From the IMG/VR virus record IMGVR_UViG_3300014203_000016, positions 1-64,000 of that record: a stretch of DNA of 64,000 bases. One strand, written 5' to 3'. The notes under the pieces are model-generated. The model had not been told where the DNA came from, did no database searches, and worked only from the letters and a program-made list of their open reading frames with translations. Below are positions 25,101-47,939 of the stretch, piece after piece. The position numbers and the translations under genes were made by a program. Each line of letters begins with the position of its first letter. Within the stretch, counting starts at the first letter, position 1. This DNA is from a virus (lineage: Duplodnaviria > Caudoviricetes).

Positions 25101-28100
25101 ATCCTTCAGGTCAACGGAGGCAATCAGTTTATCCGTCAGCTTCGTGTCTTTTTTGATGTCAAGAATTTTCGGCAAGGTCGCACCCGAATTGGCCACGACT
25201 GCCCAATCCAAACGGCGGGCGAAGATTTCCCGGAAACCGGAAACTTCGGCCTTCTTGAAGACTTTGGCGATTTGGTTCACGGTTGTTTTCACATTGTAGA
25301 ACCAATCCCAAATCAGACGTTGGGCTTCCGAAGCGTCCTTGGCTTCGGTCAAACGGGCGCCCATCAAGCCGGCTTTTGTCGGCAACATTTGGTTCTTATT
25401 TGTGTCGTAGACAAAGGCTTCCCCGTTTCCGAATTGCTGCCAACCGGATTCGGTTTGGATGATGGCTTTCATATAGGAGAAGATGCGGTGGAAAGGCATC
25501 GGTTTTTCGTCCGAGAAAGCATCGAGAAGGGCTTCGGCACCACCGAAATAGCCGCCGTCCGCAAACGCATCCGGAACCTTGCCGTTCTCGAGTAATTTGC
25601 CCGCGCCTATCGTTCCGGTCATCATCGCGTATATCTTTTGGTAATAATCTTCCGCATTGGCCCAAACCAAGCGGCCCAAAGCGAAGTCCATTTCGTACTG
25701 CGAACTCAAGGAAGCATTGGTCGCAACCAGTTCTTTTTGCTTCAAAGACTCCTCTTCGTTCTCTGCATACTCGATATTGCAATCGGCGAAAGCGGTCATG
25801 ATGCAGTCGGCCAAATACCACCAGACTTTGACATCATTCAACGGCGAACCGAGCTGGGCTTTCCACTTGTCGTAGTCGTCGCGGTCGCGGTCTTTTCCGT
25901 GCCACGATTGCCACGTCAGGAAGCTCGGCGGGTTCTTGTAGCTGCCGGAAGAAAGATATTCGATGATTTCGGCGTTTTCGTATTCTCCCGGCTGGACCGG
26001 TTTCAGCGTGACAGCCGTTACGCTTTCGGACGCATCCTTGGTTTCATCCGAGAAGCCGTCATCCCAAAACAAGGTTGGGTCGATGTATTCCGTTTCGGCG
26101 GCCTCAGCTTCAAAGCGGGTCTGGTCGGTCGACGACATCTTCAACGGGTTCTTTTCTGCTAGATTAGATTCTGCCACATAGCCAGAAGCGTCTTCCCAAC
26201 GGAAAAGCATACCTTTGCTATCATCCACCACGTCTTTTAGGTATTTGCGATATGTGTCCTTTGTGGAGATGTAGAAATCCGGGTCCAAAAAGACTTGGTC
26301 GCTTCGGTTTTCCCATTCCTTCATGCGGGCATTGATATGAGGTAAAACCGCATTCAATTCTGATACTTTTGGCATGTCCAAATCCGGATACAATTCCATC
26401 TGACGCATTCGTTCGTGCACATATACAGAATCAATACTTGGGTCGTATTTGTCATAAGCACGGTCCCGCAGGCTGTCTGTTATGTCTCCGCCCGTATATC
26501 CATATAGAGATTCTTGGCGACGCTGTGTCTTATCGAACGCGGATAGCGTTATTGTTACAATTTTCCGGTCAGGGAATCCGGCAACAGTATTGTACTGCAC
26601 CGCTTGTGGTAAAACATTGGTAATCCCAAACAAGTTTACCAATGGATTGTCGATGCCGAGAAAGCCACTAACCAAACCTTCCCTGTATTCTTTGGCGAAA
26701 CGTCCGACCTTTCGAAACATCGCTTCGGTTGCTTGGACACCAGCATCGGTTGTCTCAAAAGTGATTTGCAATTGGGGGTCTTGTGAGCCAAAATATTGCA
26801 TTGTTGGCGTTGTCGCAGATTGAATTTGCACCGTAGAAAAATTATTTTCCAACTCGACACTCATATCCAACGGAATCAAATCGGGTATAAATACTTTATC
26901 CATCTTCATGTTTTCTTCTGTGCGATTGATTTCGGCTGCTAACCCATTGTAAATGCTCGTATAGTTCGCCACTTTATTTTCGAATGCATTCGCCAATTCG
27001 GCAATCTTCTTCAATTTGGTCAAGTATTGGCCGGCGCCAGCATCCGTTGCAGGGATTAAGAAAAGTTCGGAATCCGGGTCGTCGCCATTCGTGTCTCCGC
27101 CATATGCTTTTGCTTTTGTATCTTTAAATGTCTTTTTGTTTTCTTCGGCCTCAAGGTAAAGCTGGAAAAAACCAGGTGCGTTAGAATCCATCACTACGTC
27201 GACAATATCCGTGCGGTTGTTTTTGCGCAACTTTTCAAAGAAAGGCCCAACATCGTTCGAGAAACTATACAGTGTAAAGAAGGCGTTAGCCGGAGTCTTC
27301 ACGGCATCGGCAAAGATTCCCATCAGGAAGAAAGGCATGTCGACGGACCGGCCGTCTTTCGTCGCGCTTTCTCCATACATCTTGACGGCGAATTCCCGTC
27401 CGATTTTGTTTTCTGTGTTGTTTTCAATACTGACGCCGCCACCAGCCATAATAGGAATTTCATAAGCGTGGTCGTATTTTTCAAGTGCGTCGTATTTTTC
27501 CAAGATTCCTCCGCGTTGTAACTCTAAAAGGAAGCGGTGGTATTGTTTCAAAACGGCTTGTGCGCGCAAAGCATCTTGATACTTGCGTCCATCTTCCGTA
27601 TCATCGGCCAATAAATCCTGTTCGAATTCGTAAGGCGTTTGCTTGCTTCGGAATTCATGAATATTATCCTTACGAGCTTTCAGTTGCTCTTCGTTCACGA
27701 TTGAGAAAGAGAAGCTGTTATCTAATCGGTCAATTTTTGGCAAATAGGTACGCCAAGGCTCATGCAAAAATGGTTCATGTAGGCTTCTTTGATAATGCCA
27801 ACGCAGTAGTGGATAATTGATTTTTTGAGCCAAGCTTACTTGTCCCATCAAATACGGACCGCAATCAAATTCTTCAACGACCAAAGTAACCTTCATTGCT
27901 CCAGGAAAACCAGGTACTGTTGCTGCCTGCATGCTGCGCAAAGCAACGTTGTGGATGCCAAGAACGCTATTGATGTATTCATTATCGATTGGCAAAAACG
28001 GTGCTTTTTTGAATTGAGCCAACAATGGGCGCAAGCCATCCATGTAATAATAGACAGTTTCGTTCTCTCCGGTTACGTAACCAATCGTTTTTGTTCCGTT

Positions 28101-29207
28101 GACGCTTTCCAAGTCGTGGTAATACAAGTCCATACTGAGAATATTCCGGACATTCCCGACTTGTTTTTGCAACGAGCTTTTTGCACGCATAGTAGACACT
28201 TTTTGATTTTGGAACTGCTTATCCAAACGAATCGATAGCGGCGGGATGGTAATGAAGACATCTCCGATACGCACACGGTTCTGATAGTCCCAGGGCAATT
28301 CTTCTCCCATGTCTGCGGTAGGTGCATAAATCGTTCCATTTGAGATGCGGTCATCTACCGGTGGGACAAAGGCTAGGTCGTTGTTCAAATAGCCGACCTG
28401 TGAAACATCTTCTCGAATATGTCCTTTATCTTGGTAATCACTTTTGTATTCTTTCACGGCTTGTTCTATTTCTGCATCTATTGGCAAACGGTCTGGCGTG
28501 ATACCGTCACTAGGCGATTTGACAATTTCTTCCATCGGCGGAACGCTCAATCCTAATTCGGCGCCCCAATCCGCAATCCGGATGCCGTCATTTTTAGAAG
28601 CATATTCATAACCTGTAAATTCAGCCAAAGGAACCATAATAGAACCCGTATAGTCTTTTTGTGTTTGGATATAATTCGAATACATAGGTTTCAACAATTC
28701 TTTATTAATGTTGATTGCCTTAAAGTATCCATCTTTTGCAGCCTGCGCTGCTTCTTCCCAGGTTGTGTAGTCCGTTGCGTAAACGACGCCTAAAAGTCGC
28801 CCGAAGTAATCGGCTGTCGGCTTCATCGTTGCGACATCATATTGCAGACTGACCGCAATAATGCGCTTCGATTCCAACAGAGTATCATTCAGATGTTTGG
28901 CTTCGATTGCGGCTTCATTGAGGATGTCCATGTCGACGCCATAGCACTTCGCGCGGTTCCAGTTGCGCCATTTATCCCCGACACTTTCGAAAGTATCCAC
29001 GCCCAAATAGCGTAATCTGACATGTTGGTCGCCGATGATGGATTGTTCCCCGATTTTTTCCGGGACGGGGTAATTGCCTTCCGGCCAAGCGTAACCGATG
29101 ACGTACCCATCAAGGGTATCGCCGTCGATGGCGTAGGAGCTTTGAGAGTCGAAGAATAGCCAGAATTTATGTTCACTTTCAACTACGGTGTTTTCTACAA
29201 TCGGCAT
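22125..29207 (-). CDS. Giant baseplate hub-like protein with an N-terminal thermonuclease (SNase) domain and an internal lytic transglycosylase-like motif (2360 aa)
   Basis: IDGDTL...RLRYLGVDTFE...DYFGRLLGVVY...NINKELLK (SNase). KAIIQTESGW...GLMG (SLT-like). C-terminal YKGSYTVLGDPTVKPYD...VKAVHQSMSLDTGFITVI is hub-like. Confidence 0.75.
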   Translation of the reverse strand: MPIVENTVVESEHKFWLFFDSQSSYAIDGDTLDGYVIGYAWPEGNYPVPEKIGEQSIIGDQHVRLRYLGVDTFESVGDKWRNWNRAKCYGVDMDILNEAAIEAKHLNDTLLESKRIIAVSLQYDVATMKPTADYFGRLLGVVYATDYTTWEEAAQAAKDGYFKAININKELLKPMYSNYIQTQKDYTGSIMVPLAEFTGYEYASKNDGIRIADWGAELGLSVPPMEEIVKSPSDGITPDRLPIDAEIEQAVKEYKSDYQDKGHIREDVSQVGYLNNDLAFVPPVDDRISNGTIYAPTADMGEELPWDYQNRVRIGDVFITIPPLSIRLDKQFQNQKVSTMRAKSSLQKQVGNVRNILSMDLYYHDLESVNGTKTIGYVTGENETVYYYMDGLRPLLAQFKKAPFLPIDNEYINSVLGIHNVALRSMQAATVPGFPGAMKVTLVVEEFDCGPYLMGQVSLAQKINYPLLRWHYQRSLHEPFLHEPWRTYLPKIDRLDNSFSFSIVNEEQLKARKDNIHEFRSKQTPYEFEQDLLADDTEDGRKYQDALRAQAVLKQYHRFLLELQRGGILEKYDALEKYDHAYEIPIMAGGGVSIENNTENKIGREFAVKMYGESATKDGRSVDMPFFLMGIFADAVKTPANAFFTLYSFSNDVGPFFEKLRKNNRTDIVDVVMDSNAPGFFQLYLEAEENKKTFKDTKAKAYGGDTNGDDPDSELFLIPATDAGAGQYLTKLKKIAELANAFENKVANYTSIYNGLAAEINRTEENMKMDKVFIPDLIPLDMSVELENNFSTVQIQSATTPTMQYFGSQDPQLQITFETTDAGVQATEAMFRKVGRFAKEYREGLVSGFLGIDNPLVNLFGITNVLPQAVQYNTVAGFPDRKIVTITLSAFDKTQRRQESLYGYTGGDITDSLRDRAYDKYDPSIDSVYVHERMRQMELYPDLDMPKVSELNAVLPHINARMKEWENRSDQVFLDPDFYISTKDTYRKYLKDVVDDSKGMLFRWEDASGYVAESNLAEKNPLKMSSTDQTRFEAEAAETEYIDPTLFWDDGFSDETKDASESVTAVTLKPVQPGEYENAEIIEYLSSGSYKNPPSFLTWQSWHGKDRDRDDYDKWKAQLGSPLNDVKVWWYLADCIMTAFADCNIEYAENEEESLKQKELVATNASLSSQYEMDFALGRLVWANAEDYYQKIYAMMTGTIGAGKLLENGKVPDAFADGGYFGGAEALLDAFSDEKPMPFHRIFSYMKAIIQTESGWQQFGNGEAFVYDTNKNQMLPTKAGLMGARLTEAKDASEAQRLIWDWFYNVKTTVNQIAKVFKKAEVSGFREIFARRLDWAVVANSGATLPKILDIKKDTKLTDKLIASVDLKDGFQNGPITPDSSIYFQAVMTTRERERAMATEDIAPGLYMGRNSTIIREIYDFYNATKSSYAQSYDPAEGEYVETGVITEGKQEQMDANYAKDVEQIHNNVENWTPEQKLKGMFVDMYQYDQTGRMLRAFPTFSMQIVDEGKWYDNFRTWDNFYGFNALQSIDVYKSRKIAGDTAVIAMSNMYGGLTSKRKDMEYPDLILPSFFSSQFWEQYVFDTPTEDLLKERQLIFKTMMLETGARIHLRMGYGSDARYLPVVFNGVITEVSAGDVVEITAQGDGLELSNVISGSENDKNKEFMKIIEPSDYIGKLLTSKGNWMKNWINATSDGQFFKENPLGIAHFGSTIEAPSGTVNPFSSSYGESMQNVYSQNGQFTKEQWMKPDGTTVGAIQGLFGGLPSGNLTSKYDEDNILVKLYGSTPWDIIQTFALCSTDYIAAVMPFEMRSSLFFGKPHWPVTYKYNSRYTHDAATGKWRKEIIGEHKKTFMQAHIYTSDYNIVANDIISSEEGVYNNVIVTYDGHVAGPMQADNDIQLDRQKTAMVEANLVARFGTDGNIGQFFGKNYWTVEAQAEKYGMATVRDYMKDMYKGSYTVLGDPTVKPYDSCYLSDTVLDMQGVHMVKAVHQSMSLDTGFITVIEPDAYVVNFDAELLFLPDKIFTVGKTVSFRAAASAINLGNSYLFGGHVLSYIYSELGSLAVKFQPYADKYVGGILKKGYINYYRKMGELTNSPSLLELVSRYEKANHEAFDPNSLLDSDIDDIIADIKKTKNSLRDARKTYKANKRQLKYSKYSNFVTEAFDETKVAKRSIKNFDDFEMWDQLFTHSDELDTLKDEWKVVRNTGNLARMVDTAGTVGKGASKILKTGGKLFLTVASSALFWTVIADVALEVLTSGLIEMWTRRKQNSECVKVVPLQYKGSAWVSGMNGHRGGVWGDDPSLADRIYDAEFGDADEGNDSWWVFVPKLLNQMEGENLADDLTDAQAEAQATEAAEKAETE

Positions 29208-29648: not shown

Positions 29649-32600
29649 TTAGAATCCCAGCAAGCTGTTCATCGTTTTCTCGTAGAAGCTTCGGTCCAAA
29701 GCCTGGGTGTTGTCGGTGATGTTCACGTTCATATTCATCGGCACACCGGTCATGGACGAAACTTGTTGGTTAATGATACCGGATATGGTCTCCTGGTCAA
29801 CGTTGCCGTTGCCGGATACATTCAACCGGATATTCTCTCCTCTAGGTGTAACCCTTGCCGTCGGACTCGTCAAGAGTGCAGCCGGATTAACCTCTACGGG
29901 TGTCGCTTCTTGCTGGGCTTCGTTGCCTTCGGGTGTCGGCCCGCCTTTGATGGCAGAACCGACCAACCACATGGCGGCAAAACCGGCTCCGGCGGCCGCC
30001 GGGGCGCTACCCAACATCTTGCCGGCTTGGTTGCGCAAACCATCGAACATGTTGCCTGCCGTCACGTTGTCTTTCAGGTTGCGGGTTGTTTGGAAAATGT
30101 CGCTCATCCGGCTGAACTGTTGGTCGGCCGCATCGCTGAAACCGTTCTGCCCGCCGTTGGCTTTCTTGCGCATATGCATCAGGTTCTGGACGATGGTTTC
30201 GTTCTCCATCTTGCGGGATGCGTAATAGTTTTTGGCTACTTCGGCATCCTCACCCACACCCGAGAGCTGGGAAACATAATGCTCGACATTGTCCGTACCC
30301 AGAATGGTGTTCGGTCTATCCCGCAAGGCTTCGTACAGGTTGCCGCTGGAGTCTCCGCTCGAACGCCCAAAGTTGAAGGCGTCGTTGCGTAAGGAACCAC
30401 GGTGGGCGGTCGCCTCATTCGCTTGGGCAAAAGAAGTGAATCCGGTGCGGAAGAGGTCTTCTTTGCCTTTCGGAATGGCATCGATGGCTTGCATCTGCTC
30501 CATCAAGCCATCCACGCCGCTGACGCTCAGGTTTTTGATGGCACCCGGAATGGCGCTCTGGGTATCCATGAAGGAACTGGCTTTGCCCATCAGGTAGTCG
30601 ATTTTCTCGCCACCCTTGAGTCCGTCCAGGAAGTCCATGTCGATGCCCATGTTTTCCACGTTGGCTTTTTTCGCATCGATAAAGTTTTGGACAAACAGAT
30701 TGCCGACTTCATCGTAGCTGTTCATGATGTGGTTGTATTCGTCCGCTCCGATTTGCTTCTGTTTCAAGGCTTGGCTGTAGACATAATGCATCATGTCGCG
30801 GGAAGCCACCATCGCGTTGTCGGACATACCGATACCGGCTCCGGCTTGGCGTTTGGCGACGATGTTCAAGGTTTCGTCCAGCTCGCTGGTGCGTTCCTGG
30901 AAGAAGTTTTTCGCTTCCCCGTCGCTCATTTCGCTGATTTTCTGGAAACTGGAGAAGTTGCCCGGTTCCAATACTGTCGCTTTCGCTGTTTTTTGGAACC
31001 AATCGCGCTCGCGGGCCAATGCCCGTTGTACAGCGCGCGGGTCTTCTGCGCCTCGGTAGGCATCCAACACCGCATACAAGGTATCGCCATCGTAATCGGC
31101 ACCCATCGCTTTGGCGGCTTGGCGGGAAACCAACAAGCTATTGTCGGATTTGCTGTCGCTCGTCAAGTTGCTGTCGATGCGCATGCTCAGGAAGTTCAGG
31201 GAACCTTCCGACTGGGTCGGCTGACGGTTAATCATGCCGATGACATCGAAGGTGTCGTCCTTCTCGCGCGTACCCGTCATCCGGCGCAGGATTTCGTCGT
31301 GCATTTCATCCGGGTTTATCATTTCCGGGTTCATGCCGTTGGCGATAAAGATTTCCCGTTCAATGCCTTTGATGGAATGGGAAGCCATCTCGCGGGACAT
31401 GAACGCTTCGGATTCCCGGCGGGTGCCATTGGAAAGGAAGGAGCCATCCAACTGTTCCGCATACGCCCCGAATTGGTTGTAGGTTGCCGCTTTCGCGCTG
31501 AAACCATTGACGGAGCGCATCGTGCCGGTCCCTTTCAGGAAGCCGGATTTGCTACTCGTCGACAAGTACTGGCTCGAGTCGGCGGTCAATTCCGCCATTG
31601 CCGTATTGGCGCGTTTGCGGTAGCCGTCGCCATCGCGGATGATGGCTTTCTGGATATCGTCGCGCGACAAATCTTGCGAAGAATAGTCGCGGTTGTTGTG
31701 GGCATAGACCGAACTGTAGACCGATTCGAAATCTTTCTGGATTTTACGCGGGTTCACGCCCTCGTATTCAGAGAAGCCTTCTTCGATATTGCCGATGATG
31801 GGCACGTAGGTTTTCGCGAACAAATCTCCGGACATCGGGTTGTGCCGGCCTTCCATTTGCGTCTGCAGGAAGGCTTGGCTGTTGTTGCGTTTCAGGAAAC
31901 TGCCCAACTCTTCGTTCTCGATGCCCAATTCTTTGTTGTTCAAAAGAATCGTCATTGGGTCAGCCATGGTGTTGTAGTCGTCCATCTTGCTGCGGTTCTT
32001 GCCTCTGCCGATATCCTTCAATAAGGTGGCATCGAAGACATAATGGCCGTCGACCTTGCGGATGTTGGCATCGGCGGAGCCGGCCACGCTTCCGGTCATG
32101 TCGAACAATACGTTGTTCTCCGCTTTGATGGCGGAGATATCGTTTGCGCCCAGAGATTGCCGCACGCGCGTTCCATAATCGGCATGCGCCGATTGGGTGG
32201 CGCCTTCGGACAGATGGCTGAACTGTTGGTAGATAGGATTGCTTTCCCCATTCAGTTTGCTTTTCAGGATGTTCATCTCACGGATGGAGATGCGGGCGGT
32301 GGTCGATTGGCCGGCATAGTCGAAGACGTTGTGCCAGCGGGCTTGCGTGTAGACGTTGCCTTCATCGAAGCCGAAGTCGGCGCGCGATTGGCCCAAGAAG
32401 GTCTTGTACTGGTCGCGGGCGTAGGTTCCGGTCAATTCTTTGATGTTGGCTGCATCGCCGTACAGCAAGCGTTGGCCGTCAGCGTCGAAGGAAATGGTTT
32501 TGTCCAAGCCCATCGTCGCTAAATGCGGTTGGAAGATGTTCTTGAAGGCTTCGGCCTGAATCGTTTCGCGACTCAAATCCTGCGTCGAAAAGGCTTTGCC

Positions 32601-35600
32601 TTCATTGCCAAGCCATTTCTGGACCGCCGGCAATTCCGCTTGCCCGCCGGTACTCACACGCTCCAAATCTTCGAGCATGTTCTGGAAATCGGTTTCGATG
32701 TTGGTCGCCAACATCCCGCCCCACGGGTTCCTTCCGGTATTGATTTGTTCCTGGACGGCATCGATGCGCGGACCGCTACCGGCATTGAAGATGCGGTCAA
32801 AAATGTCGTCGGCAGAGGTGCGCATGGTCGTACGCGTTCCTTGCAAGCCATCAATCAGTTTAGTGCCGTCGTGTCCCTTTTGGACTTGTTCCAGAATCAG
32901 GTGTGTGCCCTTTTCGGTCTTCGAGATGCCCAGGATTTTTGAGTCTTTGTAGACGCGGTATTTCTGCTCAGCCGCGATGTTCTTGCTGGCTTCATCCCCG
33001 CCGGCACGCATCGATTCCTCCACGATGTCGCCGACCTTCAACAAGCCTTCGTCGGTGATAAGCCCCATCTTGGCCATCTCGTCGTAGCCGATAGGCTGTT
33101 TGAATTTCAGGCTGCCATTCTTGAAGATGGCGTCATTGTTTTCTTTGGCCAACCGCTCCTGCATGCTCTCGCTCAATTGGATGCCGGTCTTCAAGCGGAT
33201 GTTCATTTCGTCCTTGACTTCCATCGCTTGCGCCAAACTTTCGCGGACAATCATCTGCCCATCGTAGTTGGAATGCAAGCCGGACTGCATGATTTTCTTT
33301 TTCGCCTGCAAATCTTCGACGGCGGCACGGATGGTGCGCGGGTCTTGCCCGGAAGCACCCTTGGCTTCCATCTCCAGGATTTCCTTGTCGATTTGTTTGA
33401 TTGCCAAGTCCACTTTGTTCTGCACTTCGCTGTCGTTCATGTAAGCCGAACGGATGCCGATGCCCCGGACGCCGGATTCTTTGCCGATGGCCATGTCGTA
33501 AGCGGCCATTTGCGCCGTGTCGGAACTGTTCAGGCGCCGGCTGATTTGCTCCGGACTTAAACCGGATTGTGCCAGGTAATTCTCTAAACCACTTTGTTCC
33601 ATTGTGTGGTAGTTTTGCGTCTTCAGGATTTGGTCACGGGTCGCCGGATTGTGCGTGCCCAATGGGGTCAGATTGCGTTGGTCTTTTACGTAGACTTTAC
33701 CGGACATGAACTGTTGGGTATTGGTTCCCTGAGTGGTTACCTGGATGCCATCCTTGCCCTTACCGTACGCTTTGTTCCACTCGAAGGGTAACTGCAACAA
33801 GACTTTGTTGCGCACGTTAAACGCTTCTTTTCGGGGTTTCCAGCCACTGTTGATAAAGTTGACATCTTGCTTGTCGTTGTCGCGTTGCCATCTCTTGAAC
33901 TCGTCCGCATAACCGCCGCCCATGCGTCCCAATAAGGTATCCCCGTAATCCGAGATGTCCATTGTGAAACCGGAAGCAAGGTTCTTGTTCCGCGAAGCCG
34001 CCGCCCAAGCCGTATCCGAGTTGCCGTCACCGGGGAAGCGACTGGATACTTGACCGTTGGTCATCTTGTGGCGATAGCTAGCCAAACGTCCGTCAACAAT
34101 GTCATTCATTGACACCTTCTGGCCTTGGCGTTTGGCGTCTTCGGCTTTCTTGTTGATTTGGCTCGGCAACCATTTCAGTTCATCGAAAGCCCGTTCGACG
34201 GTGCTTGAATAGCTCATTTCCGGTGCGCTATGCCCGAAGTCGGTGCCGATTTTGGCTTTGTATTGGTTCATCAAACGCGTGCCGTTGATGTTGACCGAAC
34301 CGGACTTGTCGAACAGCGGAATCGAAACGCGGTTCACTTTTGAACTGAAACGTTTTTCGTCGACGGTCATGTTGTTCATGAAAGGCGCATTGCCGGCTTC
34401 GGTAAAGAACAACACCATGTCGTCGCTTTCTTTGATGTAGTCCAAGCTGACGCCAAAGCCATTGGCCTCGAAAGCGGCCACGGTCTCTTTGATGCGGGCA
34501 TGGTAATCGACGCCGGAAGTGTTTTTCTTTCCGCCTTGGTTGAAGCTGAAAATGTCCGTGGTTGCGCGGACCTGATTGTCGAAATAAGCGCCGACATCTT
34601 CGGCGGTCTTCAAGCGGGTTGCCACGCTTCCGCTCAGATTGTCGAGGTCGAAACTGCGGAAGTTGCCACGGGTCGTTTCTGAAGACAATTGTTCCTTCGA
34701 TTGCGCCAAAGCTTCTTGGTGCCAGGATTGGAAACTTTCATGCTTGTTCGAGCTGAGGTTGCTGATGTAGTCCGCTCGTCCAGATTGGCCGTTGCTGGTT
34801 GCGCCTTTGATGTTGAACCCCGGCACACTGCTGACGACACGGTCGGAGGAAGTCGCGATTTCCTGAATGCGGTTGGTCAGACGCTTGATGGTGTTCTGGG
34901 AAACATTCCCGTTGGTTCGAATTTCCTTGCGGGCCTGTTCATAGATTTCTAGACGGGTTTTGTCGTCCATCGTGCCCCCGATTTGTTTCAGCATGTTGTC
35001 GAAATCCAACAAGGTCATGCTGGCGTTCTTGTTCGCGCCCGTGCGCAACACTTGCCCAATCCGTCCCTGCAGCATCTTGTTGTCCGACACGTTCAGGTAG
35101 GTGGTCTTATCGTCGAGCGTCTTCATCGGGATGACCTTCATGCCGTCGTATGTATAACTCATCTGGTTGTCCGGCAATTCCTGCTTGTAGCGGGTTGCGA
35201 AGTTCGAGATGTACAGGTTCTGGGACATGCCGGCTACGCTTGGTCGGTCGCCGGGTTGCGGAATCTGCTTGGCGTTTTCGATGACATTGTTCCACATGCC
35301 TTGTTCTTCGCGCAGGATGCCCTTCAATCCCACCGTCTTCTCTATTTTTTCGTAACTGCGGTAGTATTGCGAATCGGTTTCTTCGCTTGCGTTGTAGGCA
35401 TCTTGAACGTTTTTGATGGCCAACTTCTCGATGTTTCCGTTGAAGCCGCTATTCTGCAGGTTGGTGACTTCCGCATCGTACTTGTCCAGTATTTCATAGG
35501 ATTTGTTCAAGCGTTTCACGATGGTATCTTTGTCGTTGTATTTCATGCGGGGGTCGAACAATTCATCGTAGTAACGACGGTAACTGTCGCTCTTGATGTA

Positions 35601-37064
35601 GGACTGACGACTGGCGCTGACTTCCTCTGCCGGCGTCAGGTTCTCGTTGAAAAGATTCGTCAGTTCGGATTGGCTTTCCCGGAAAATGGTTTTGATGGTA
35701 TTGCTGTCCACATCCCGCAAGGTCATGCCGTAGTGGTCGACGCCATTGATGGCTTTCTTACCGGCGCTTCCCAAGAATTCGTATTGGTGACCCGCCACAA
35801 TCGAAGCTTCCTGGAAACGGTAGTTCTGCACGAAGCGGTCTTCCTTTTCGTCCCAACGCATCGTCACATCATACTGCCCGCGATTGCGGTTGAAGGCACT
35901 GTCATAATAACCGCCCGTCCCTTTTTCGGAAACGAACAGTTGGTTCTTTTGGATGGCTTTGCTCTGGCTTTCGCCCAAAGCGCCGGCTTTCACCAACCGC
36001 AATTCGTCATTGAAGACGAATCCGTTCATGGCCGTATCGTCACCGGCATAATGAGCCAGTCCGCCCGAAACGTTTTTTGGCGCCACGGCATTGAAAATGG
36101 TGGAAAGTTGGTTGTTCTTCGTGTCGGCCTTGGTCTGGTTATACACCTTTTCCGCCAATACCAACGTATCGATATGCGGTTGGGTTATCAGTTGCATGGC
36201 TCTTTTTCCAGCTGCGGACGTTTGCGGGCCCATCCATTCAGCGGTGTTGCCTTGGTCGAACTTCTGGACATTATGCCCGACGAAAACCGGGTTTTTTTCT
36301 CCAAACATGTTGATGGCTTCAATGCCTTGTTCTTTTGTGTTCGTATATTTCAAGTCAGACTGAATCGCAAGTCCTTTACGGGCGCGCGCAATGTTTTCGG
36401 CCGTGCCCAAAGCAATGCCCTTGTAGCTCGGCTTGTTCGCCGATTGCCCGGTCATGACGGCGAATTCTTTTCCGCCGATGATTTGTTTACCGAAGTAACT
36501 TTCGTTATCCGCAACCGTCAAGTCGGCCACAGAACGGCGCAAGCCCTCATCCATCCGGTAGAAGGAAGAAGGGTCGCGTTCCAATTGGTCCAACGCGCCG
36601 GATAGTTTCGCGTGCGTGTTGCCGCTGATTTGCATCGCCAATACAACGGCTTCTTCTTTGGCGCTCACACTGGCCCCATCATAATGGTGTTTGTGCAGAG
36701 AGATTTGGGTGACATCGAAGAAGTCATCCGCCGTTTGTTTGCCGAAGAGGTTGCGGTTAGAGGTTCCCAACGTTTCCGTATCCCAAACCACGACATCGCG
36801 GTCATTCGAGGAGAGCAGGTCATCCAACGCCCGTTTGGTTTCCGACAAGTCATTGGAGAGACCGGGCGTTGCATAGATGCCGATATCACCCATCTTGTTT
36901 GGGCCATCTGGCATCATTTCTTTGGCCGCTTGCATCCCTGCCGCCTGGCGCGCGTCGCTGTCGCCGTAATCCTGCCCGAAACTGTAGGGACTGGTGTAAA
37001 CGTTGACGGCATCGCCATATTGTACTTGGGTAATCCCTAACGCTTTGTTGAACGTGTCTACCAC
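29649..37064 (-). CDS. Putative virion single-chain two-barrel RNA polymerase fused to an N-terminal DEDDh exonuclease (2471 aa)
   Basis: GTG start with SD GAGGAGG. Exo motifs WDTET, GHNVQKFD, AHYAGDD. Beta-like NYDGQMIVRESL, GTKLIDGLQGTR, IDAV...GRNPWGGML. Beta-prime-like KSGFLKG, NRQPT, GADYDGD. Confidence 0.85.
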   Translation of the reverse strand: MVDTFNKALGITQVQYGDAVNVYTSPYSFGQDYGDSDARQAAGMQAAKEMMPDGPNKMGDIGIYATPGLSNDLSETKRALDDLLSSNDRDVVVWDTETLGTSNRNLFGKQTADDFFDVTQISLHKHHYDGASVSAKEEAVVLAMQISGNTHAKLSGALDQLERDPSSFYRMDEGLRRSVADLTVADNESYFGKQIIGGKEFAVMTGQSANKPSYKGIALGTAENIARARKGLAIQSDLKYTNTKEQGIEAINMFGEKNPVFVGHNVQKFDQGNTAEWMGPQTSAAGKRAMQLITQPHIDTLVLAEKVYNQTKADTKNNQLSTIFNAVAPKNVSGGLAHYAGDDTAMNGFVFNDELRLVKAGALGESQSKAIQKNQLFVSEKGTGGYYDSAFNRNRGQYDVTMRWDEKEDRFVQNYRFQEASIVAGHQYEFLGSAGKKAINGVDHYGMTLRDVDSNTIKTIFRESQSELTNLFNENLTPAEEVSASRQSYIKSDSYRRYYDELFDPRMKYNDKDTIVKRLNKSYEILDKYDAEVTNLQNSGFNGNIEKLAIKNVQDAYNASEETDSQYYRSYEKIEKTVGLKGILREEQGMWNNVIENAKQIPQPGDRPSVAGMSQNLYISNFATRYKQELPDNQMSYTYDGMKVIPMKTLDDKTTYLNVSDNKMLQGRIGQVLRTGANKNASMTLLDFDNMLKQIGGTMDDKTRLEIYEQARKEIRTNGNVSQNTIKRLTNRIQEIATSSDRVVSSVPGFNIKGATSNGQSGRADYISNLSSNKHESFQSWHQEALAQSKEQLSSETTRGNFRSFDLDNLSGSVATRLKTAEDVGAYFDNQVRATTDIFSFNQGGKKNTSGVDYHARIKETVAAFEANGFGVSLDYIKESDDMVLFFTEAGNAPFMNNMTVDEKRFSSKVNRVSIPLFDKSGSVNINGTRLMNQYKAKIGTDFGHSAPEMSYSSTVERAFDELKWLPSQINKKAEDAKRQGQKVSMNDIVDGRLASYRHKMTNGQVSSRFPGDGNSDTAWAAASRNKNLASGFTMDISDYGDTLLGRMGGGYADEFKRWQRDNDKQDVNFINSGWKPRKEAFNVRNKVLLQLPFEWNKAYGKGKDGIQVTTQGTNTQQFMSGKVYVKDQRNLTPLGTHNPATRDQILKTQNYHTMEQSGLENYLAQSGLSPEQISRRLNSSDTAQMAAYDMAIGKESGVRGIGIRSAYMNDSEVQNKVDLAIKQIDKEILEMEAKGASGQDPRTIRAAVEDLQAKKKIMQSGLHSNYDGQMIVRESLAQAMEVKDEMNIRLKTGIQLSESMQERLAKENNDAIFKNGSLKFKQPIGYDEMAKMGLITDEGLLKVGDIVEESMRAGGDEASKNIAAEQKYRVYKDSKILGISKTEKGTHLILEQVQKGHDGTKLIDGLQGTRTTMRTSADDIFDRIFNAGSGPRIDAVQEQINTGRNPWGGMLATNIETDFQNMLEDLERVSTGGQAELPAVQKWLGNEGKAFSTQDLSRETIQAEAFKNIFQPHLATMGLDKTISFDADGQRLLYGDAANIKELTGTYARDQYKTFLGQSRADFGFDEGNVYTQARWHNVFDYAGQSTTARISIREMNILKSKLNGESNPIYQQFSHLSEGATQSAHADYGTRVRQSLGANDISAIKAENNVLFDMTGSVAGSADANIRKVDGHYVFDATLLKDIGRGKNRSKMDDYNTMADPMTILLNNKELGIENEELGSFLKRNNSQAFLQTQMEGRHNPMSGDLFAKTYVPIIGNIEEGFSEYEGVNPRKIQKDFESVYSSVYAHNNRDYSSQDLSRDDIQKAIIRDGDGYRKRANTAMAELTADSSQYLSTSSKSGFLKGTGTMRSVNGFSAKAATYNQFGAYAEQLDGSFLSNGTRRESEAFMSREMASHSIKGIEREIFIANGMNPEMINPDEMHDEILRRMTGTREKDDTFDVIGMINRQPTQSEGSLNFLSMRIDSNLTSDSKSDNSLLVSRQAAKAMGADYDGDTLYAVLDAYRGAEDPRAVQRALARERDWFQKTAKATVLEPGNFSSFQKISEMSDGEAKNFFQERTSELDETLNIVAKRQAGAGIGMSDNAMVASRDMMHYVYSQALKQKQIGADEYNHIMNSYDEVGNLFVQNFIDAKKANVENMGIDMDFLDGLKGGEKIDYLMGKASSFMDTQSAIPGAIKNLSVSGVDGLMEQMQAIDAIPKGKEDLFRTGFTSFAQANEATAHRGSLRNDAFNFGRSSGDSSGNLYEALRDRPNTILGTDNVEHYVSQLSGVGEDAEVAKNYYASRKMENETIVQNLMHMRKKANGGQNGFSDAADQQFSRMSDIFQTTRNLKDNVTAGNMFDGLRNQAGKMLGSAPAAAGAGFAAMWLVGSAIKGGPTPEGNEAQQEATPVEVNPAALLTSPTARVTPRGENIRLNVSGNGNVDQETISGIINQQVSSMTGVPMNMNVNITDNTQALDRSFYEKTMNSLLGF

Positions 37065-37096: not shown

Positions 37097-39158
37097 CTAC
37101 ATGTAGTTTGTGTAATTTTGCATGCCGGCTTTGATTTCTTCCGAACGGTCTTTTTGGATATTCAAACTGGTACTGAACGAATCTTCTGTTGCAGAACCTA
37201 CCTTCATGCCGATGCGAACATCTTTCAATCCGGCTCCGCGCAAAGCCTTCTCTAAATCTCCCGTATTAATCATGGTAGAAAAAAGGCTTTGTCGAATAGG
37301 AATAGCCTCGACTCCGGATTGGTCGGCGAGTTTTTCGTCATCGCCCCAATAGTTAGCTTCGGTCAATTCGATGCCCTCATTGCGCATCACTTTCAGCTTG
37401 ATGCTGTCCAAGGATGTGCCGGGGTTCCAGCCTTCCCACTTGGCACCGGGCAGATTGTATTTATCGAAATACTTATTCAGGTCTTCCGGTTCGTCTACTT
37501 TCAAGCCGAATTGCTGTTGGTAAATGCGCTTCTGGTTTTCCGGCACCAATTCCAATATCCGTTGCCGTTCACGCGGAGAAGCTTTGGCGAAAGCAGTGAA
37601 ATATTCCTTATCTTTCTTCGGCAAGGCCCGGTATGTCTTGCTGTAGTTGTAAGTATCCGATGCTCCGAACAACGTCGATTCGAATTCGTCTTTGTAACGA
37701 AGCGCCAAAGCGGCATAAGGGCCCACTTCGCCGGTCGGTCGGTCGCTGTCGATTTCATTCAACTGCAACTTGATGTCGGCCAATTCGGTGTCGATGTTCT
37801 CGCTGTTGGCGTCTTCGCTATCTTTCTTGATGTTAAGCCATTTTTTCTTGTTGTTCAAGTAGGCTTTCAAGTTTTTATTATCTTTTCCGCGCGTCGTATT
37901 CGTGTCGAAATACGCGTCCAAATCCATGCCTTCATATTTCTTGGCATCATCTTTGGCTTTCTCGTACAAACCCTTGTATTTGATGTATTTGATTTTGTCG
38001 AAGTACTCGTCGACTTCGCGCTCGCGTTCGCGGCGTTCCGGAATCCAAATCTCTTTTCCGCCCGGCGTCAGTTCTCGTCCGGTATCAATCACCGTCCGTA
38101 CACCGGAAACCAATCCGAAGACAATCCCGGTGCCCATTCCTTTGTTCCATTTGTTCTTCTTACCGGCCAGCAAGCCGATTCCCAATCCATTCAGGAAGGA
38201 AAGCCCCGGATTTAAGGCGGCCGTACTGTCAAACATCGGCATCAACCAGTCGCTAATCGGATTCTTCCAGTCACGCCAAGATTTGCTGTACAGTTCATCC
38301 GCATACGCTTCCGTCGCTGATTTCACTGGTAGGAATTTGTCGGCGATGATATTCACAACCGGTACCATCGGCAACAAATCATGAACCATCCATTCCGTCA
38401 ATTTGCCGGTGGTCAGTTGTCCCTCGGAGAACAAAGCTTCGGTCGCGATGGAGGATTCGTCATCCTTCAAGGTCACCGTTCCACCGTATTCTTCCGTGCG
38501 TTTCGACAAGTAGTAGTTCAGGTTGTCGTGCGCACCCAAACCTTCCATACCGAAGCGCGAACCTTTGGCCGCGTGCGGCGTATACACAACCACACGCATC
38601 GTGTCCATCATGTCATCGCGGACGCGTTTCAGCGGGTCTCCGTCGATGGAAACCTGCAGTTTCTGCCCCGGTTTGATGAATTGGCCAATCATCGCTTTGT
38701 TTTCTTCGTCATCCGTCTTGACGTTTACCCCTGCTAATTTAAACGGGTTATTCGCATATTCTTCCGTCAGGAAGGTGTTCTGGTCAAGGACTTGGGTGAC
38801 CGTGACGGTCTCTTTTTCGTTGTCCATATTCTGGAAGCGTTCCGCATAGAAGTTTTTCTTCTTCATGCGCGAAGAAACTTGGTCGCGGATGGTCGCGTAC
38901 TCGTCCTGTTGGCGTTCATCCAAATAACCGTTTTGGTTCAGGAGTGCGACTTCTTTTTTGGCCGCCCGGTACTGGTCTGAGTAAGGGGCTACGTCAGCCA
39001 AAATGCGGTAGCGGTCCAATGCAGAGTAATTGCCCTGTGCGTCTTTGCGTACCCCGTATAATTTTTCATATGCATCTCCAGGCAAGCGCTGTTCACCCTT
39101 GGCGACTTTCGCATAGGGGTCGCCGTGCAAGAAATCCTGGAAGTAACCGGCGCCGGGT
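37097..39158 (-). CDS. Exon 2 of the tape-measure-like giant protein (spliced product 2170 aa)
   Basis: After removing 39159-40162 the frame reads ...NTMPTW-L-PGAGYFQDFLHGDPYAK, in frame with the 677-aa ORF. No SD precedes that ORF's TTG. Confidence 0.85.
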
Positions 39159-40162
39159 CGTTTATCTTCGCAATAATTCGCTAAATTATTACCGTTCTTT
39201 TATGAACTGCTGCATGTTTCCATGCAGACGAGACTATATCTTCACCGCTCTAATTGAGCAGGCTCTCTGTTTCCATTTAATCCCTATGCTTTTGCAATTC
39301 TTCCTGATTACGGAAGACGGGAGCCGCTTGGCTGTACTCTACTCGGTTTGCCTTATCAAAATAAGACCTTCCCTTTTGATAGTCGTTGAACTTAACAACT
39401 TAGTTCTTTTAAGAGTTTGTCTCTCCACTGGATAGCTTCTTCCAGCTTCTTGAAGCTTTTCCGGTACTTCTTTTTGTTTCTTGAAATACCAACTTCGTAA
39501 AGACCATCTCTTTTGTCGTAGGATATATTTCTTAGTCCGGTCGTTTGGTTGTCGTACCGCTTATTGATGTTTTGAGTAGAACGATTTGCCCAGATGCAAT
39601 TTTCTTTGGAATATCCTGCATCGTTATCTATTCTTTCTATGCTTTGCATTGGAGGAGCTTCTCCCATATCTTGAAAGAAATTTTCGAACAACATCCATTC
39701 TTCTGAAATGCCAATCCCTCTTCCTCCGTAGTTGAAATAGCTTTCGCTTTTCGGATTGAGGCATCGTTGTTTCATTCCTACCCAAACATTATAAGTCCTT
39801 GTGTTTGCTTTTCCATGGCTTGTTATGTTGTTGAGAAAAATTTCTTTAGCAACACAACCACAAGAAGTGGTTTTTCCTAAACGAACCGAGGAGCCATTGA
39901 TTATTTTTTGACTCCCACATTTGCATTGGAATAACCAAAACGCCCCGCCCTTCCCCATGTGGGAAAAATTAATTGCGGTGAGTTTTCCAAACTGCTTTCC
40001 TACCATATCTTTTACTCGATAATCCATCATTATCACTCCTTCATAAGGAATATGATACCATAGACTACCGGGGAGAACTAGAGTTATTAAGCTGCTGATT
40101 GCCCTCGCCTTTACGTTAGGGGTTTCCAGCAATTAAGAAAGTTTATACTGACCAATAAGTCT
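39159..40162 (-). ncRNA. Group I self-splicing intron (1004 nt, IA-like) carrying an HNH endonuclease gene
   Basis: P1 exon CUGGCU pairs with GGUCAG, with U-G at the splice site. P element AAUUGCUGGAAA, Q AAUCAGCAG, R GUUCAACGACUA, S AAGAUAUAGUC (P7 GACUA/UAGUC). P9 CUGCAUG-GAAA-CAUGCAG. Terminal G at 39159. Confidence 0.93.
39392..40030 (-). CDS. Intron-encoded HNH homing endonuclease with a C-terminal AP2-like domain (212 aa)
   Basis: ATG 40030 with SD AAGGAG. WLFQCKCG...TTSCGC, YGGRGI, SIERIDNDAGYSKENCIWA...QNINKR. Lies in the P6a loop; lower GC than the exons. Confidence 0.9.
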   Translation of the reverse strand: MMDYRVKDMVGKQFGKLTAINFSHMGKGGAFWLFQCKCGSQKIINGSSVRLGKTTSCGCVAKEIFLNNITSHGKANTRTYNVWVGMKQRCLNPKSESYFNYGGRGIGISEEWMLFENFFQDMGEAPPMQSIERIDNDAGYSKENCIWANRSTQNINKRYDNQTTGLRNISYDKRDGLYEVGISRNKKKYRKSFKKLEEAIQWRDKLLKELSC

Positions 40163-47315: not shown

Positions 47316-47939
47316 TTAGTATGTGATAGTTGCGTTAGTTTGACCTTTAGTATGTTCTCGAGAGCCCATATCGTTAATGCCACGCGCAACAAACGTACAA
47401 GATTTTTGGGTAGTGATGTCGTCGATAGACATGCCCATACCCTCATTCAGAATCTCTACGCCGTAGATGCTCATAGTAGAAGCAAATCCGTATTCGTTCA
47501 AGAAACTGATAGTGATGTCAAAAGGCGGAATTTCATCAGAATATGTTGGTGTAGCGCCTTTTGTCCACTGTGCGAAATTCGCGTCCATCGATATATTGCT
47601 ATCGAGGTGAGCTGGTCTCGGCGCATCAGATTCTCCACCTTTGTAAGCAGAGTCATTGAATTGCTGACGGTAGACGATAGAACCGTCTTTGATAGCCTGC
47701 AAGGCATCGCGGTCCAAAACGGTGAAGACTAAAGAGCCTGCAATTCCGCGTTTGCCGCGAGAGAAAGAACGCGGGTTTGGGTTACCCATAGTGAAGATGG
47801 GTGCTTTTTCTCTGGTTACGCTGTATGTAATACTTTGTAATTCACCAACGACCATATTGCCGAAAGAAGCTTTGATGTCGGCTCCGGAGAATGAGGTATA
47901 CGTTTTAGTATACTCCGTAGTTGCAAAATTGTTTGCCAT
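47316..47939 (-). CDS. Major tail tube protein (207 aa)
   Basis: YTSFSGADI...RGKRGIAGSLVFTVLDR...DEIPPFDITISFLNEYG; directly follows the sheath; high-expression codon style. Confidence 0.85.
   Translation of the reverse strand: MANNFATTEYTKTYTSFSGADIKASFGNMVVGELQSITYSVTREKAPIFTMGNPNPRSFSRGKRGIAGSLVFTVLDRDALQAIKDGSIVYRQQFNDSAYKGGESDAPRPAHLDSNISMDANFAQWTKGATPTYSDEIPPFDITISFLNEYGFASTMSIYGVEILNEGMGMSIDDITTQKSCTFVARGINDMGSREHTKGQTNATITY

Follow-up and report, generated by a model that had tools for sequence, protein, structure and literature searches.

Location and Conservation of the Giant Gene

The stretch of DNA analysed here (the window, 64 kb from an uncultured jumbo phage) carries, within a late structural operon, a gene that is translated without interruption into a 2471-aa protein (Table 1), an identical copy of which is contained in the protein collection. 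It lies between a tape-measure-like giant, encoded by a separate gene upstream, and a hub/lysin giant. This tail-module location, claimed in the first-pass annotation, was confirmed in the window and is conserved in distant relatives, with the order tape-measure-like giant, polymerase giant, and hub giant kept in members at about 25% identity. The family comprises about 27 representative clusters of 17–44% identity, nearly all of about 2400–2600 aa, with full-length homologues in KLEB27-3 (gp034), Edson (0920), and WH1 (gp095); in WH1, tblastn found only this protein's C-terminal portion (33% identity). GenBank describes the KLEB27-3 and WH1 homologues as "structural protein" or "virion structural protein", which hints at their presence in the virion. 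A sigma-70-type factor is also encoded by the relatives, in whose genomes no further beta-prime-like or T7-like polymerase came to light.

A hidden single-chain two-barrel RNA polymerase (RNAP), ordered beta-then-beta-prime, had been proposed for this protein from a series of short motifs. A peptide search of the translation located all of them at the assigned residues, each once: NYDGQMIVRESL (aa 1266–1277), GLLKVGDIV (1340–1348), GTKLIDGLQGTR (1400–1411, with K1402 and R1411), IDAV (1434–1437), GRNPWGGMLATNI (1444–1456), KSGFLKGTGTMRSVNGFSAK (1839–1858), FMSREMA (1888–1894), VIGMINRQPTQ (1941–1951), AMGADYDGDTL (1986–1996), GIGMSDN (2077–2083), and NFIDAKK (2127–2133). Three copies of D.DGD exist in the six frames of the window, and only the one in the giant gene has an NRxP motif 43 residues upstream.

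Table 1. Features of the giant gene and its product, with positions in the window.
Feature	Residues (aa)	Position	Strand	Basis
Whole gene, giant protein	2471 aa	29649..37064	(-)	GTG start, stop codon 29649–29651; ORF list and translation
N-terminal DEDDh (DnaQ/RNase T-type) 3'-5' exonuclease domain	about 80–370	35955..36827	(-)	Profile, AF2 and VIA, Foldseek, conservation
Middle region	371–1199	33468..35954	(-)	AF2 model, conservation
Two-barrel RNAP core, as modelled	1200–2250	30315..33467	(-)	AF2, Foldseek, VIA
Beta-like barrel (DPBB-B)	1265–1460	32685..33272	(-)	Conservation, VIA alignment to beta-like chains
K1402...R1411 (GTKLIDGLQGTR), candidate basic pair of beta-type barrel		32832..32861	(-)	Conservation, AF2 strands
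Beta-prime-like barrel (DPBB-A)	1839–2003	31056..31550	(-)	hhalign, PHROG, PDB profile matches
NRQPTQ (R1947, P1949), counterpart of beta-prime NRAPTLH		31212..31229	(-)	Conservation, hhalign register
D1990-Y-D1992-G-D1994, candidate metal-binding Asp triad		31083..31097	(-)	Conservation, alignment to NADFDGD
Candidate bridge helix, 41 residues	2061–2101	30762..30884	(-)	DSSP of model, conservation
QNFIDAKK (Q2126, I2129, K2132, K2133), candidate trigger-loop start		30666..30689	(-)	Conservation, model helix
Only hydrophobic segment (APAAAGAGFAAMWLVGSAI)	2354–2372	29949..30005	(-)	Kyte-Doolittle
C-terminal module (GPTPEGNEAQQEAT...LTSPTARVTP...DNT..LD..FYE)	about 100 aa	29652..29948	(-)	Conservation

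Sequence Similarity to Known RNA Polymerases

The E. coli motifs with which those of the giant protein had been paralleled do exist and are colinear, both in beta (NFEDS at 811, GDKMAGRHGNK at 1063, VDIVLNPLG... at 1094) and in beta-prime (KQGRF... at 334, NRAPTLH at 424, NADFDGD at 458). Pairwise similarity was weak, with a Smith–Waterman z of 2.6 for the beta-prime part and a non-significant z of 0.7 for the beta-type barrel against E. coli beta; therefore, the motif parallels alone would not carry the assignment. With the family profile, aa 1882–1998 were aligned by hhalign to E. coli beta-prime 361–468, placing NRxP on NRAPTLH and DxDGD on NADFDGD, with R1947 and P1949 in register with R425 and P427. 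PHROG 2987 ("RNA polymerase beta subunit") matched at the beta-prime active-site motif with an E-value of 0.002, and at this same motif the family profile matched AR9 beta-prime (7s01_d, E 0.0021), phiKZ (7ogp_A, 0.009), and Pol IV/V in the PDB. When the complete genomes of KLEB27-3, WH1, and Edson were scanned in six frames, each gave a single PF00623 match, in every case inside the homologous giant gene (E-values of 7e-5, 5.4e-4, and 9.4e-4, respectively). All these matches are below curated thresholds, yet they are register-correct at the beta-prime active site; the window's own protein gave zero matches to Pfam and zero sequence matches to the PDB.

Among 29 sequences, R1947, P1949, D1990, D1992, G1993, and D1994 are nearly invariant, the Asp motif being ADYDGD in KLEB27-3 and ADHDGD in Edson. 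The family alignment also showed nearly invariant K1402, G2079, I2129, K2132, and K2133, with R or K always present at position 1411 and D or E at position 1268 in all aligned members. On the other hand, K1839, formerly likened to a beta-prime residue, is not conserved in the family, so that this parallel is unsupported. The position of beta-prime N458 in NADFDGD, a ribose-recognising residue, corresponds to G1988 and is occupied by varied residues in the family, which would count against an RNAP.

Predicted Fold of the Polymerase Core

The AF2 model of the core, built without templates, reached a pLDDT of 82.6 and a pTM of 0.74. The 50 best Foldseek matches in the PDB were all RNAP beta-prime or beta chains, the best being 7s00_d (E 1.2e-4). 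By VIA, the best match over both barrels was QDE-1 (Z 13.2, 308–376 residues aligned); the non-virion RNAPs P74 gp62 and P23-45 gp64 gave Z 10.7–10.8, RDR2 10.2, and P23-45 gp96 8.2–8.5. Bacterial beta-prime (Z about 10–10.5; Mtb beta-prime, 10.0) was aligned on model residues 440–1045, and beta-like chains (Z 7.4–8.4) on residues 1–393, among them the phiKZ chain 7ogp_C (Z 8.4, 271 aligned) and Xanthomonas beta residues 825–1287 (Z 7.4, 237 aligned). The model thus places aa 1200–1590 on beta-like chains and aa 1640–2245 on beta-prime. The comparison with RNAP beta/beta-prime and QDE-1, suggested in the first-pass annotation, returned two-barrel polymerases and only these, and the fold of the core as modelled resembles that of the catalytic parts of cellular beta and beta-prime joined in this order.

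The predicted DPBB-B contains the acidic residue 1268 (SNYDGQ), LTVG 1342–1345, K1402, located about 130 aa from 1268, R1411, and E1439...R1445...G1449. K1402 and R1411, nine residues apart, are found on adjacent strands of the model (segment residues 203–206 and 212–218), from which we infer the residue assignments of this barrel, with K1402/R1411 as putative equivalents of beta K1065/K1073. DPBB-A includes FMSREMA (1888), NRQPTQ (1946), and ADYDGD (1989). Downstream of it, DSSP detected a helix at model residues 862–902, in a region covered by the alignments to beta-prime and QDE-1, carrying the motif IGxxDN (G2079, D2082, N2083) that is kept across the family; this helix may represent the bridge helix. 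QNFIDAKK lies at the end of the following helix (model residues 908–932) and could be the start of a trigger-loop element. Conservation of catalytic residues, register-correct profiles, and the predicted fold together support the hidden single-chain enzyme originally proposed.

Exonuclease Domain, Middle Region, and C-Terminus

The N-terminal domain is an intact DEDDh 3'-5' exonuclease, whose five catalytic residues (D95, E97, D270, H338, D343) are kept in 20 of the 20 members having it. The family profile matched TREX-like and PolC exonucleases in the PDB (E 1.5e-6), and the AF2 model matched DinG-exo, PolC, ExoI, Pol III epsilon, and RNase T by VIA (Z 15.6 to 14.1), with a Foldseek probability of 1.0 for RNase T. 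The domain is missing from four shorter family members (sequences possibly truncated), and may therefore be accessory. DEDDh domains are typical of DNA polymerases, and we know of no role for them in two-barrel RNAPs; candidate roles here are the trimming of RNA or DNA 3' ends at the entry site or an attack on host nucleic acids.

An AF2 model including the middle region had a pLDDT of about 77 overall, its listed fold matches being exonucleases, and a protein atlas search for this region gave no match. In this region, just upstream of the polymerase core, R1143-E-x3-K1148-x2-N1151-Y1152 is nearly invariant, with K1148 and N1151 present in 24 of 24 sequences. Beyond the core, the hydrophobic segment (19-residue Kyte-Doolittle mean of 1.43, marginal for a membrane helix) is kept as GAGxAAMW, and conservation in the family peaks in the C-terminal module, with many nearly invariant columns versus 17–30% identity elsewhere. 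From this conservation, the C-terminal module is a candidate for assembly or anchoring.

Proposed Role and Alternative Explanations

Our results support that this unannotated tail-gene protein combines a single-chain cellular-type RNAP core with a proofreading-type exonuclease and, since both are encoded among tail genes, it probably travels inside the virion and initiates phage transcription. We assign a probability of about 0.7 to a single-chain two-barrel (double-psi beta-barrel) RNAP embedded in a giant virion protein. Such a protein would be built into the tail or baseplate via its conserved C-terminal 100 residues and the hydrophobic segment, and sheath contraction would expel it together with the tape-measure-like protein. 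The polymerase would then remain near the DNA entry site and transcribe those genes that enter first (pre-early or early) independently of the host RNAP, whereas for later genes the host polymerase would be redirected by the phage sigma factor encoded in complete relatives. Against such a delivery route, a core exceeding 1000 residues, once folded, could get through a tail tube only by unfolding or by adopting an unusual shape.

An active two-barrel polymerase other than an early-gene DNA-dependent RNAP, either primer-making, RNA-templated (QDE-1-like), or DNA-synthesising as archaeal PolD, seems unlikely. Proofreading in DNA polymerases is classically the task of DEDDh exonucleases, the exonuclease domains of PolC, Pol III epsilon, and the B family are among the closest matches here, and in a DNA-synthesising enzyme the fused domain could proofread, acting on the incoming genome end. 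The non-conserved counterpart of N458 also fits this explanation, as does the best whole-core structural match, QDE-1, an enzyme with both RNA- and DNA-templated activity (PMC9508822). However, the counterpart of beta-prime R425 is nearly invariant, the exonuclease may be accessory, as noted above, and the phage single-chain relatives YonO, gp66, gp96, and gp64 are reported to be DNA-dependent RNAPs (PMC10770324 and references therein).

We consider very unlikely a tail structural or ejection protein descended from an RNAP, in which catalysis was lost and the fold kept as a scaffold, despite the location of the gene among purely structural genes, the annotation of its relatives only as structural proteins, and the sub-threshold level of all RNAP-family matches. 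A scaffold would not need catalytic residues, and it is precisely these (Asp triad, R/P, K1402, R/K1411, acidic 1268) that are kept at 17–30% identity, together with the five of the exonuclease.

No second polymerase that could serve for comparison is seen in the contig, which covers about 36% of the genome; this would leave room for an active RNAP made late and unpackaged, a late-gene or replication-associated enzyme merely sharing the tail operon. The conserved order of the three giants and the extremely conserved C-terminal module plus hydrophobic segment, as in ejection proteins, make this highly improbable, and a late-made polymerase would serve earlier stages only if carried over in the particle.

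Finally, chance motifs plus a fold-prediction artefact in a protein unrelated to polymerases, for which the low pairwise z scores (0.7 and 2.6) could be invoked, can hardly be sustained against profile matches from three libraries converging on one site, the exact hhalign register, a template-free model with RNAP subunits as all its 50 best Foldseek matches, and best VIA matches that extend over both barrels in each of four different polymerases of the single-chain type.

Comparison with Known Systems

Virion single-chain RNAPs are a kind already known, with crAss gp66 and P23-45 gp96 as examples; in the literature, no paper was found describing this giant-protein family or its exonuclease–RNAP fusion. 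The best sequence-profile and Foldseek matches were multisubunit RNAP beta/beta-prime chains, especially those of the split enzymes of the jumbo phages AR9 and phiKZ (PDB 7S00/7S01, 7OGP). NRxP and DxDGD, together with the "S..MA" segment before them, follow the order of beta-prime 361–468, and the beta-like part has structural matches in the phiKZ beta-like chain and in bacterial beta 825–1287; in contrast, a single chain replaces four or five subunits, and all matches are below family thresholds.

QDE-1, like RDR2 a eukaryotic RNAi polymerase, also has its metal motif as DYDGD and, within one chain, a beta-like part ahead of a beta-prime-like one, just as in the giant protein. No match was found to PF05183, the QDE-1/RDR2/YonO-like family (PMC2919709, PMC9508822), Foldseek puts multisubunit beta-prime chains first, and the spacing from the acidic to the first basic residue of the beta-type barrel contrasts with the 34 residues of QDE-1 (D709 to K743; PMC2919709). 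By description only, the giant protein can be likened to the beta::beta-prime-like giants of the NCgl1702 type found in mobile elements (about 2200 aa; Iyer et al. 2003, cited in PMC2919709 and PMC7824862), thought to be phage- or mobile-element-derived, whose likeness to RNAP is limited to about 40 residues of the catalytic core, the rest being unique, although neither exonuclease fusion nor tail-module context is reported for NCgl1702 in those two papers.

The virion RNAP gp66 of crAss-like phi14:2 (bioRxiv 10.1101/2020.03.07.982082; PDB 6VR4) is also a large single-chain two-barrel enzyme encoded in a structural gene block and detectable by its Asp motif only. It is virion-packaged, as we infer for the giant protein, but it belongs to a podovirus-like Crassvirales phage and has no fused exonuclease. 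6VR4 is absent among the structural matches listed, similarity being still possible, and large proteins from crAss-type phages that are uncultured occur among the BFVD matches.

In Thermus phage P23-45, gp96 joins a virion RNAP and the tape measure protein in one fusion, and gp64 (P74-26 gp62) is its non-virion paralogue (PMC10770324; PDB 8H2M/8H2N, 8F72, 8F5M). Neither gp96 nor gp64 was matched at the sequence level in sequence and family-profile searches against the PDB. P23-45 is a siphovirus, whereas the phage described here is a contractile-tailed jumbo phage, and its polymerase, instead of being fused to the tape measure, lies mid-protein behind a DEDDh exonuclease that gp96 does not have. 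Nevertheless, in both cases a single-chain two-barrel RNAP, with the beta-like barrel followed by the beta-prime-like one, is hidden in a giant tail-module protein and was first recognisable only by DxDGD, and both phages likely share the use of a virion enzyme for the first genes and of other polymerases later.

A Predicted Two-Barrel Polymerase Core within a Giant Protein

The first-pass annotation had proposed that a giant protein of 2471 residues, the product of a single unbroken ORF, hides a single-chain RNA polymerase (RNAP) in which a beta part precedes a beta-prime part. AlphaFold2 modelling of aa 1200–2250 with the family alignment yielded a core model with pLDDT 82.6 and pTM 0.74. 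Its 50 best Foldseek matches in the PDB were all large subunits (beta-prime and beta) of multisubunit RNAPs, the best being AR9 (7s00_d, E 1.2e-4), and a second structural aligner, VIA, also returned two-barrel enzymes, QDE-1 among them. Since the matches to beta-like chains and to largest subunits cover successive ranges of the model, the order is beta-like and then beta-prime-like, in agreement with the annotation. PolD and phi14:2 gp66 were absent among the structural matches listed, though similarity to them may still exist.

Structural matches of the core model found with VIA (model residue 1 is aa 1200)
Match	Z	Part of the model aligned
QDE-1	13.2	308-376 residues, across the whole model
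P74-26 gp62 / P23-45 gp64	10.7-10.8	whole model
Maize RDR2	10.2	whole model
Bacterial and eukaryotic largest subunits	9.3-10.5	440-1045
P23-45 gp96	8.2-8.5	1-994
phiKZ beta-like chain (7ogp_C)	8.4	1-393
Xanthomonas beta, residues 825-1287	7.4	1-390

In the model, the first barrel comes after a long helical hairpin, and the second barrel is followed by a 41-residue helix carrying IGxxDN and by a second helix ending in ISAKK, which plausibly represent bridge-helix and trigger-loop elements. The acidic residue 1268 and K1402 of the first barrel are about 130 residues apart, whereas the corresponding acidic-to-basic spacing in QDE-1 is 34 (PMC2919709), and this spacer leaves room for a flap-like insertion.

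A search of the BFVD with the core model detected an unnamed 1258-residue entry (E 7.6e-27), which is probably a homologue of the giant protein, in addition to P23-45 gp64 and crAss-type proteins. Matches were also obtained to a “minor tail protein” of an uncultured gut Siphoviridae (E 8.8e-15), to uncharacterised proteins of the Acinetobacter jumbo phage vB_AbaM_ME3 (E 2.7e-8), and to a protein of Microcystis phage MaMV-DC (E 7.7e-7). Judging from these matches, two-barrel polymerases may be hidden in the last three phages too, which suggests that such polymerases in tail modules are commoner than the literature shows.

Sequence Evidence and Conserved Residues

The profile matches to RNAPs, all of them below curated thresholds, meet at one site. 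PHROG 2987 (“RNA polymerase beta subunit”) matched aa 1919–1999 (E 0.002), and the family profile found AR9 beta-prime (E 0.0021), phiKZ (E 0.009), and also plant Pol IV/V in the PDB. Six-frame scans of the complete genomes of the Bacillus phages KLEB27-3, WH1, and Edson with PF00623 gave one match per genome, always within the homologous giant gene and at the site of the Asp loop (E 7e-5, 5.4e-4, and 9.4e-4, respectively), although the contig of the window itself gave none. Alignment with hhalign placed aa 1882–1998 on E. coli beta-prime 361–468, with NRxP over NRAPTLH, DxDGD over NADFDGD, and R1947/P1949 in register with R425/P427; no meaningful alignment of the family to E. coli beta was produced. 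Neither Pfam searches of the giant protein and four relatives nor phmmer searches of the giant protein against PDB sequences gave a real match. PF05183, the profile for the YonO / QDE-1-like RdRP family, found nothing on the giant protein (E up to 1), the contig, or KLEB27-3; this profile scores weakly even on the B. subtilis YonO control, so distant kinship may still exist.

Each of the peptides quoted in the first-pass annotation was found once in the giant protein and was correctly numbered, and the E. coli motifs with which they had been paired are real and colinear (beta 811, 1063, and 1094; beta-prime 334, 424, and 458). Across all six reading frames of the 64-kb window, the D.DGD pattern is limited to three copies. 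Smith–Waterman comparison with E. coli gave z 2.6 for the beta-prime part and a non-significant z 0.7 for the beta part; because this pairwise similarity is weak, the motif parallels are insufficient by themselves. One of them, that of K1839, found no support, as this residue varies across the family.

An exhaustive phmmer search of 1.84 billion representatives with aa 1200–2250 identified 27 clusters, nearly all of 2400–2600 aa and none recognised as a polymerase. Megablast against phages gave no match, and no further loci were found in viral and genome contig collections. In an alignment of 29 sequences (17–44% identity), R1947, P1949, D1990, D1992, G1993, D1994, Y2003, G2079, I2129, K2132, and K2133 are nearly invariant, and both NRYPT and ADxDGD are kept in the KLEB27-3 and Edson homologues. 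Within the columns of the beta-type barrel, K1402 is invariant, position 1411 is always R or K, and position 1268 is always D or E, with LTVG and E...R...G motifs conserved as well; these three positions fall in the part of the core model that aligns to beta-like chains, without significant alignment to beta at the sequence level. PMC2919709 tabulates universal residues of two-barrel polymerases. D1990, D1992, and D1994 correspond to the metal-binding Asp-x-Asp-x-Asp loop of the beta-prime-type barrel, and R1947 and P1949 to the Arg and Pro that precede this loop (Rpb1 R446/P448, in the NRAPTLH of beta-prime); K1402, R/K1411, and D/E1268 are candidate counterparts of the two basic residues and one acidic residue of the beta-type barrel (Rpb2 K979, K987, and D837).

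Genomic Context in the Tail Module

The window comes from an 81.8-kb IMG/VR contig, which is thought by estimate to cover 36% of a genome. Along its minus strand, genes for terminase, portal, major capsid, two sheath and three tube-like proteins and two small genes are followed by a 1500-aa ORF, an HNH gene, a 677-aa ORF, the giant protein, a 140-aa ORF, a 2360-aa hub/lysin giant, an M23 peptidase, and a baseplate-J wedge protein. The gene is thus located within the late structural module, and this order recurs in all three Bacillus phages and in two metagenomic relatives.

Features of the giant protein and its neighbourhood (ORFs on the minus strand)
Feature	Window position	Residues	Observation
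Giant protein	29649-37064	2471 aa
DEDDh exonuclease		about 80-370	D95/E97, D270, H338/D343
Middle region		371-1199
R-E-x-x-x-K-x-x-N-Y	33610-33636	1143-1152	almost invariant
Asp triad	31083-31097	D1990/D1992/D1994
Hydrophobic segment		2354-2372	marginal; the only one
C-terminal 100 residues	29652-29948	2373-2471	GPTPEGNEAQQEAT...LTSPTARVTP...
1500-aa ORF	40111-44613	1500 aa	Edson residues about 346-1329
Interval	39131-40110
HNH endonuclease ORF	39392-40132		PHROG 374, E 2.5e-67
Group I intron match	39210-39509		RF00028, 37.3 bits, E 1.5e-7; below gathering score of 50
677-aa ORF	37097-39130	677 aa	Edson residues about 1340-2012
2360-aa giant	22125-29207	2360 aa	PHROG 20474 “endolysin” at aa 1474-2313, E 9.5e-194; clear hydrophobic segment at aa 2229-2259
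Tube-like paralogues	47316-47939; 46507-47244; 45671-46486		PHROG 9206 “major head protein”

Full-length homologues were detected by tblastn only in three Bacillus jumbo myophages: KLEB27-3 gp034 (“structural protein” in GenBank; 22% identity over 91% of the query), Edson 0920 (“hypothetical”), and WH1 gp095 (“virion structural protein”). A run of three giant genes is common to them, and in the metagenomic relatives (about 25% identity) the tape-measure-like giant is likewise followed by the polymerase giant, the hub giant, and the M23 peptidase, in that order.

Upstream of the giant gene, the 1500-aa and 677-aa ORFs are colinear with one 2025-aa Edson protein, with the HNH endonuclease ORF and the RF00028 match between them; Rfam at its gathering threshold detected nothing in the whole window. 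From the Edson colinearity and the RF00028 match, both ORFs therefore correspond to one tape-measure-like giant split by an intron. Similar splits were observed in KLEB27-3 (gp031/gp032/gp033) and in one metagenomic relative (1436 + 207 + 548 aa). The 2360-aa giant is probably the hub or tail lysin; most of its sequence is homologous to the 2319-aa protein encoded after the polymerase gene in Edson. The three consecutive paralogues matching PHROG 9206 lie directly after the sheath genes, a place occupied in KLEB27-3 by three genes annotated “tail tube protein”; the “major head protein” label looks wrong for them.

Kinship with phage 0305phi8-36, suspected at first, was discarded, as searches of its genome with the family profile and with the Edson homologue were both negative; its YonO-like gp99 (PMC2147016) is the product of a different and unrelated gene.

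Exonuclease and Other Conserved Regions

The N-terminal region of the giant protein contains a DEDDh (DnaQ-like) exonuclease with an RNase H-like fold, detected with the family profile (E 1.5e-6) and matched by VIA to DinG-exo, PolC, ExoI, epsilon, and RNase T (Z 14–15.6, rmsd 2.6–3.8 over 169–192 residues) and by Foldseek to RNase T (probability 1.0). Its Exo I (DxE), Exo II (D), and Exo III (Hx4D) motifs provide five catalytic residues, all of them kept in 20/20 domain-bearing members. Four shorter members (P0006, P0012, P0016, and P0017; 1907–2192 aa) lack the domain in the alignment, which would make it an accessory, unless their sequences were cut short by contig ends.

The middle region gave no match in a protein atlas search, and in the structure searches exonucleases took up the matches listed. 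It harbours, about 120 residues ahead of the first barrel, the RExxxKxxNY motif, whose K1148 and N1151 are invariant in 24/24 sequences and which may be a nucleic-acid-contacting polymerase element, fork-like or hybrid-binding-like. Finally, conservation across the family peaks in the C-terminal 100 residues, far above that of the polymerase core, and these are the only part detected by tblastn in WH1; they may act as a module for assembly or anchoring, or as a processing site. A search for shorter proteins carrying this module found 12 short sequences, most on short contigs; three of them are fragments from the core search, and the set is uninformative on separate use of the module.

Proposed Role

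The analysis shows a polymerase fold in a predicted model, an exonuclease, catalytic residues kept across the family, and a constant place in the tail module. On this basis we favour, with a probability of about 70%, the reading that the giant protein is a single-chain two-barrel polymerase within a virion protein, which would be packaged and ejected for early transcription. A polymerase with another template or product specificity is unlikely, although the best structural match over the core, QDE-1, would suit it. A catalytically dead scaffold, which would suit the structural labels of the homologues, is distinctly improbable beside their conserved catalytic residues, and marginally less probable still is an enzyme that is made and not packaged, an explanation against which the constant tail-module position speaks. 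That the motifs arose by chance, as weak pairwise scores would permit, is barely credible next to the predicted fold.

For a packaged and ejected polymerase, the C-terminal module would anchor the protein in the tail or baseplate, contraction would expel it along with the tape-measure-like protein, and it would transcribe the first-entering genes without help from the host RNAP, a scheme already put forward for P23-45 gp96 (PMC10770324). Later genes would probably depend on the host polymerase, because the relatives possess a gene for a sigma-70-type factor, and no further polymerase of the beta-prime-like or T7-like type was found in them. The exonuclease might cooperate with the polymerase, proofreading or trimming transcripts or readying the incoming genome end as template, or else the enzyme might make primers or DNA, rather than mRNA, at the entry site; we regard these ideas as improbable. 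If the exonuclease did cooperate in this way, this would be the first two-barrel RNAP with a dedicated 3'-5' exonuclease, and on either idea the three giants with their nuclease-bearing neighbours would form an injected nucleic-acid-processing machine instead of a passive tape measure and hub. The favoured reading poses the question of the purpose of a proofreading-type exonuclease on such an enzyme. It would also account for the start of transcription in phages of the KLEB27-3, Edson, and WH1 type, and would give the two-barrel superfamily a very divergent new branch. As the clade includes these three cultured Bacillus phages, the prediction is directly testable at the bench.

Comparison with Known Systems

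To our knowledge, the few lineages in which experiments have demonstrated virion-delivered two-barrel RNAPs are phiKZ-like phages, crAss-like phages, and P23-45. Phage RNAPs that are packaged in virions and ejected include N4 vRNAP, crAss gp66, P23-45 gp96, and phiKZ vRNAP, and with the present prediction a clade of jumbo phages with contractile tails would join them. In a survey of jumbo phages, double-barrel RNAPs were listed only for group 1 and for two members of group 3, 0305phi8-36 and Clostridium phage c-st, whose enzymes are YonO-like (PMC7824862), and our literature search found no published description of the giant-protein family, KLEB27-3, or WH1. Hidden virion two-barrel RNAPs are a known kind, represented by crAss gp66 and P23-45 gp96, and the family described here is a separate one. 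In P23-45 gp96, polymerase and tape measure form one polypeptide, whereas here the tape-measure-like protein is encoded by a separate upstream gene; this lack of fusion, the presence in contractile-tailed jumbo phages, and the N-terminal DEDDh exonuclease make the family distinct.
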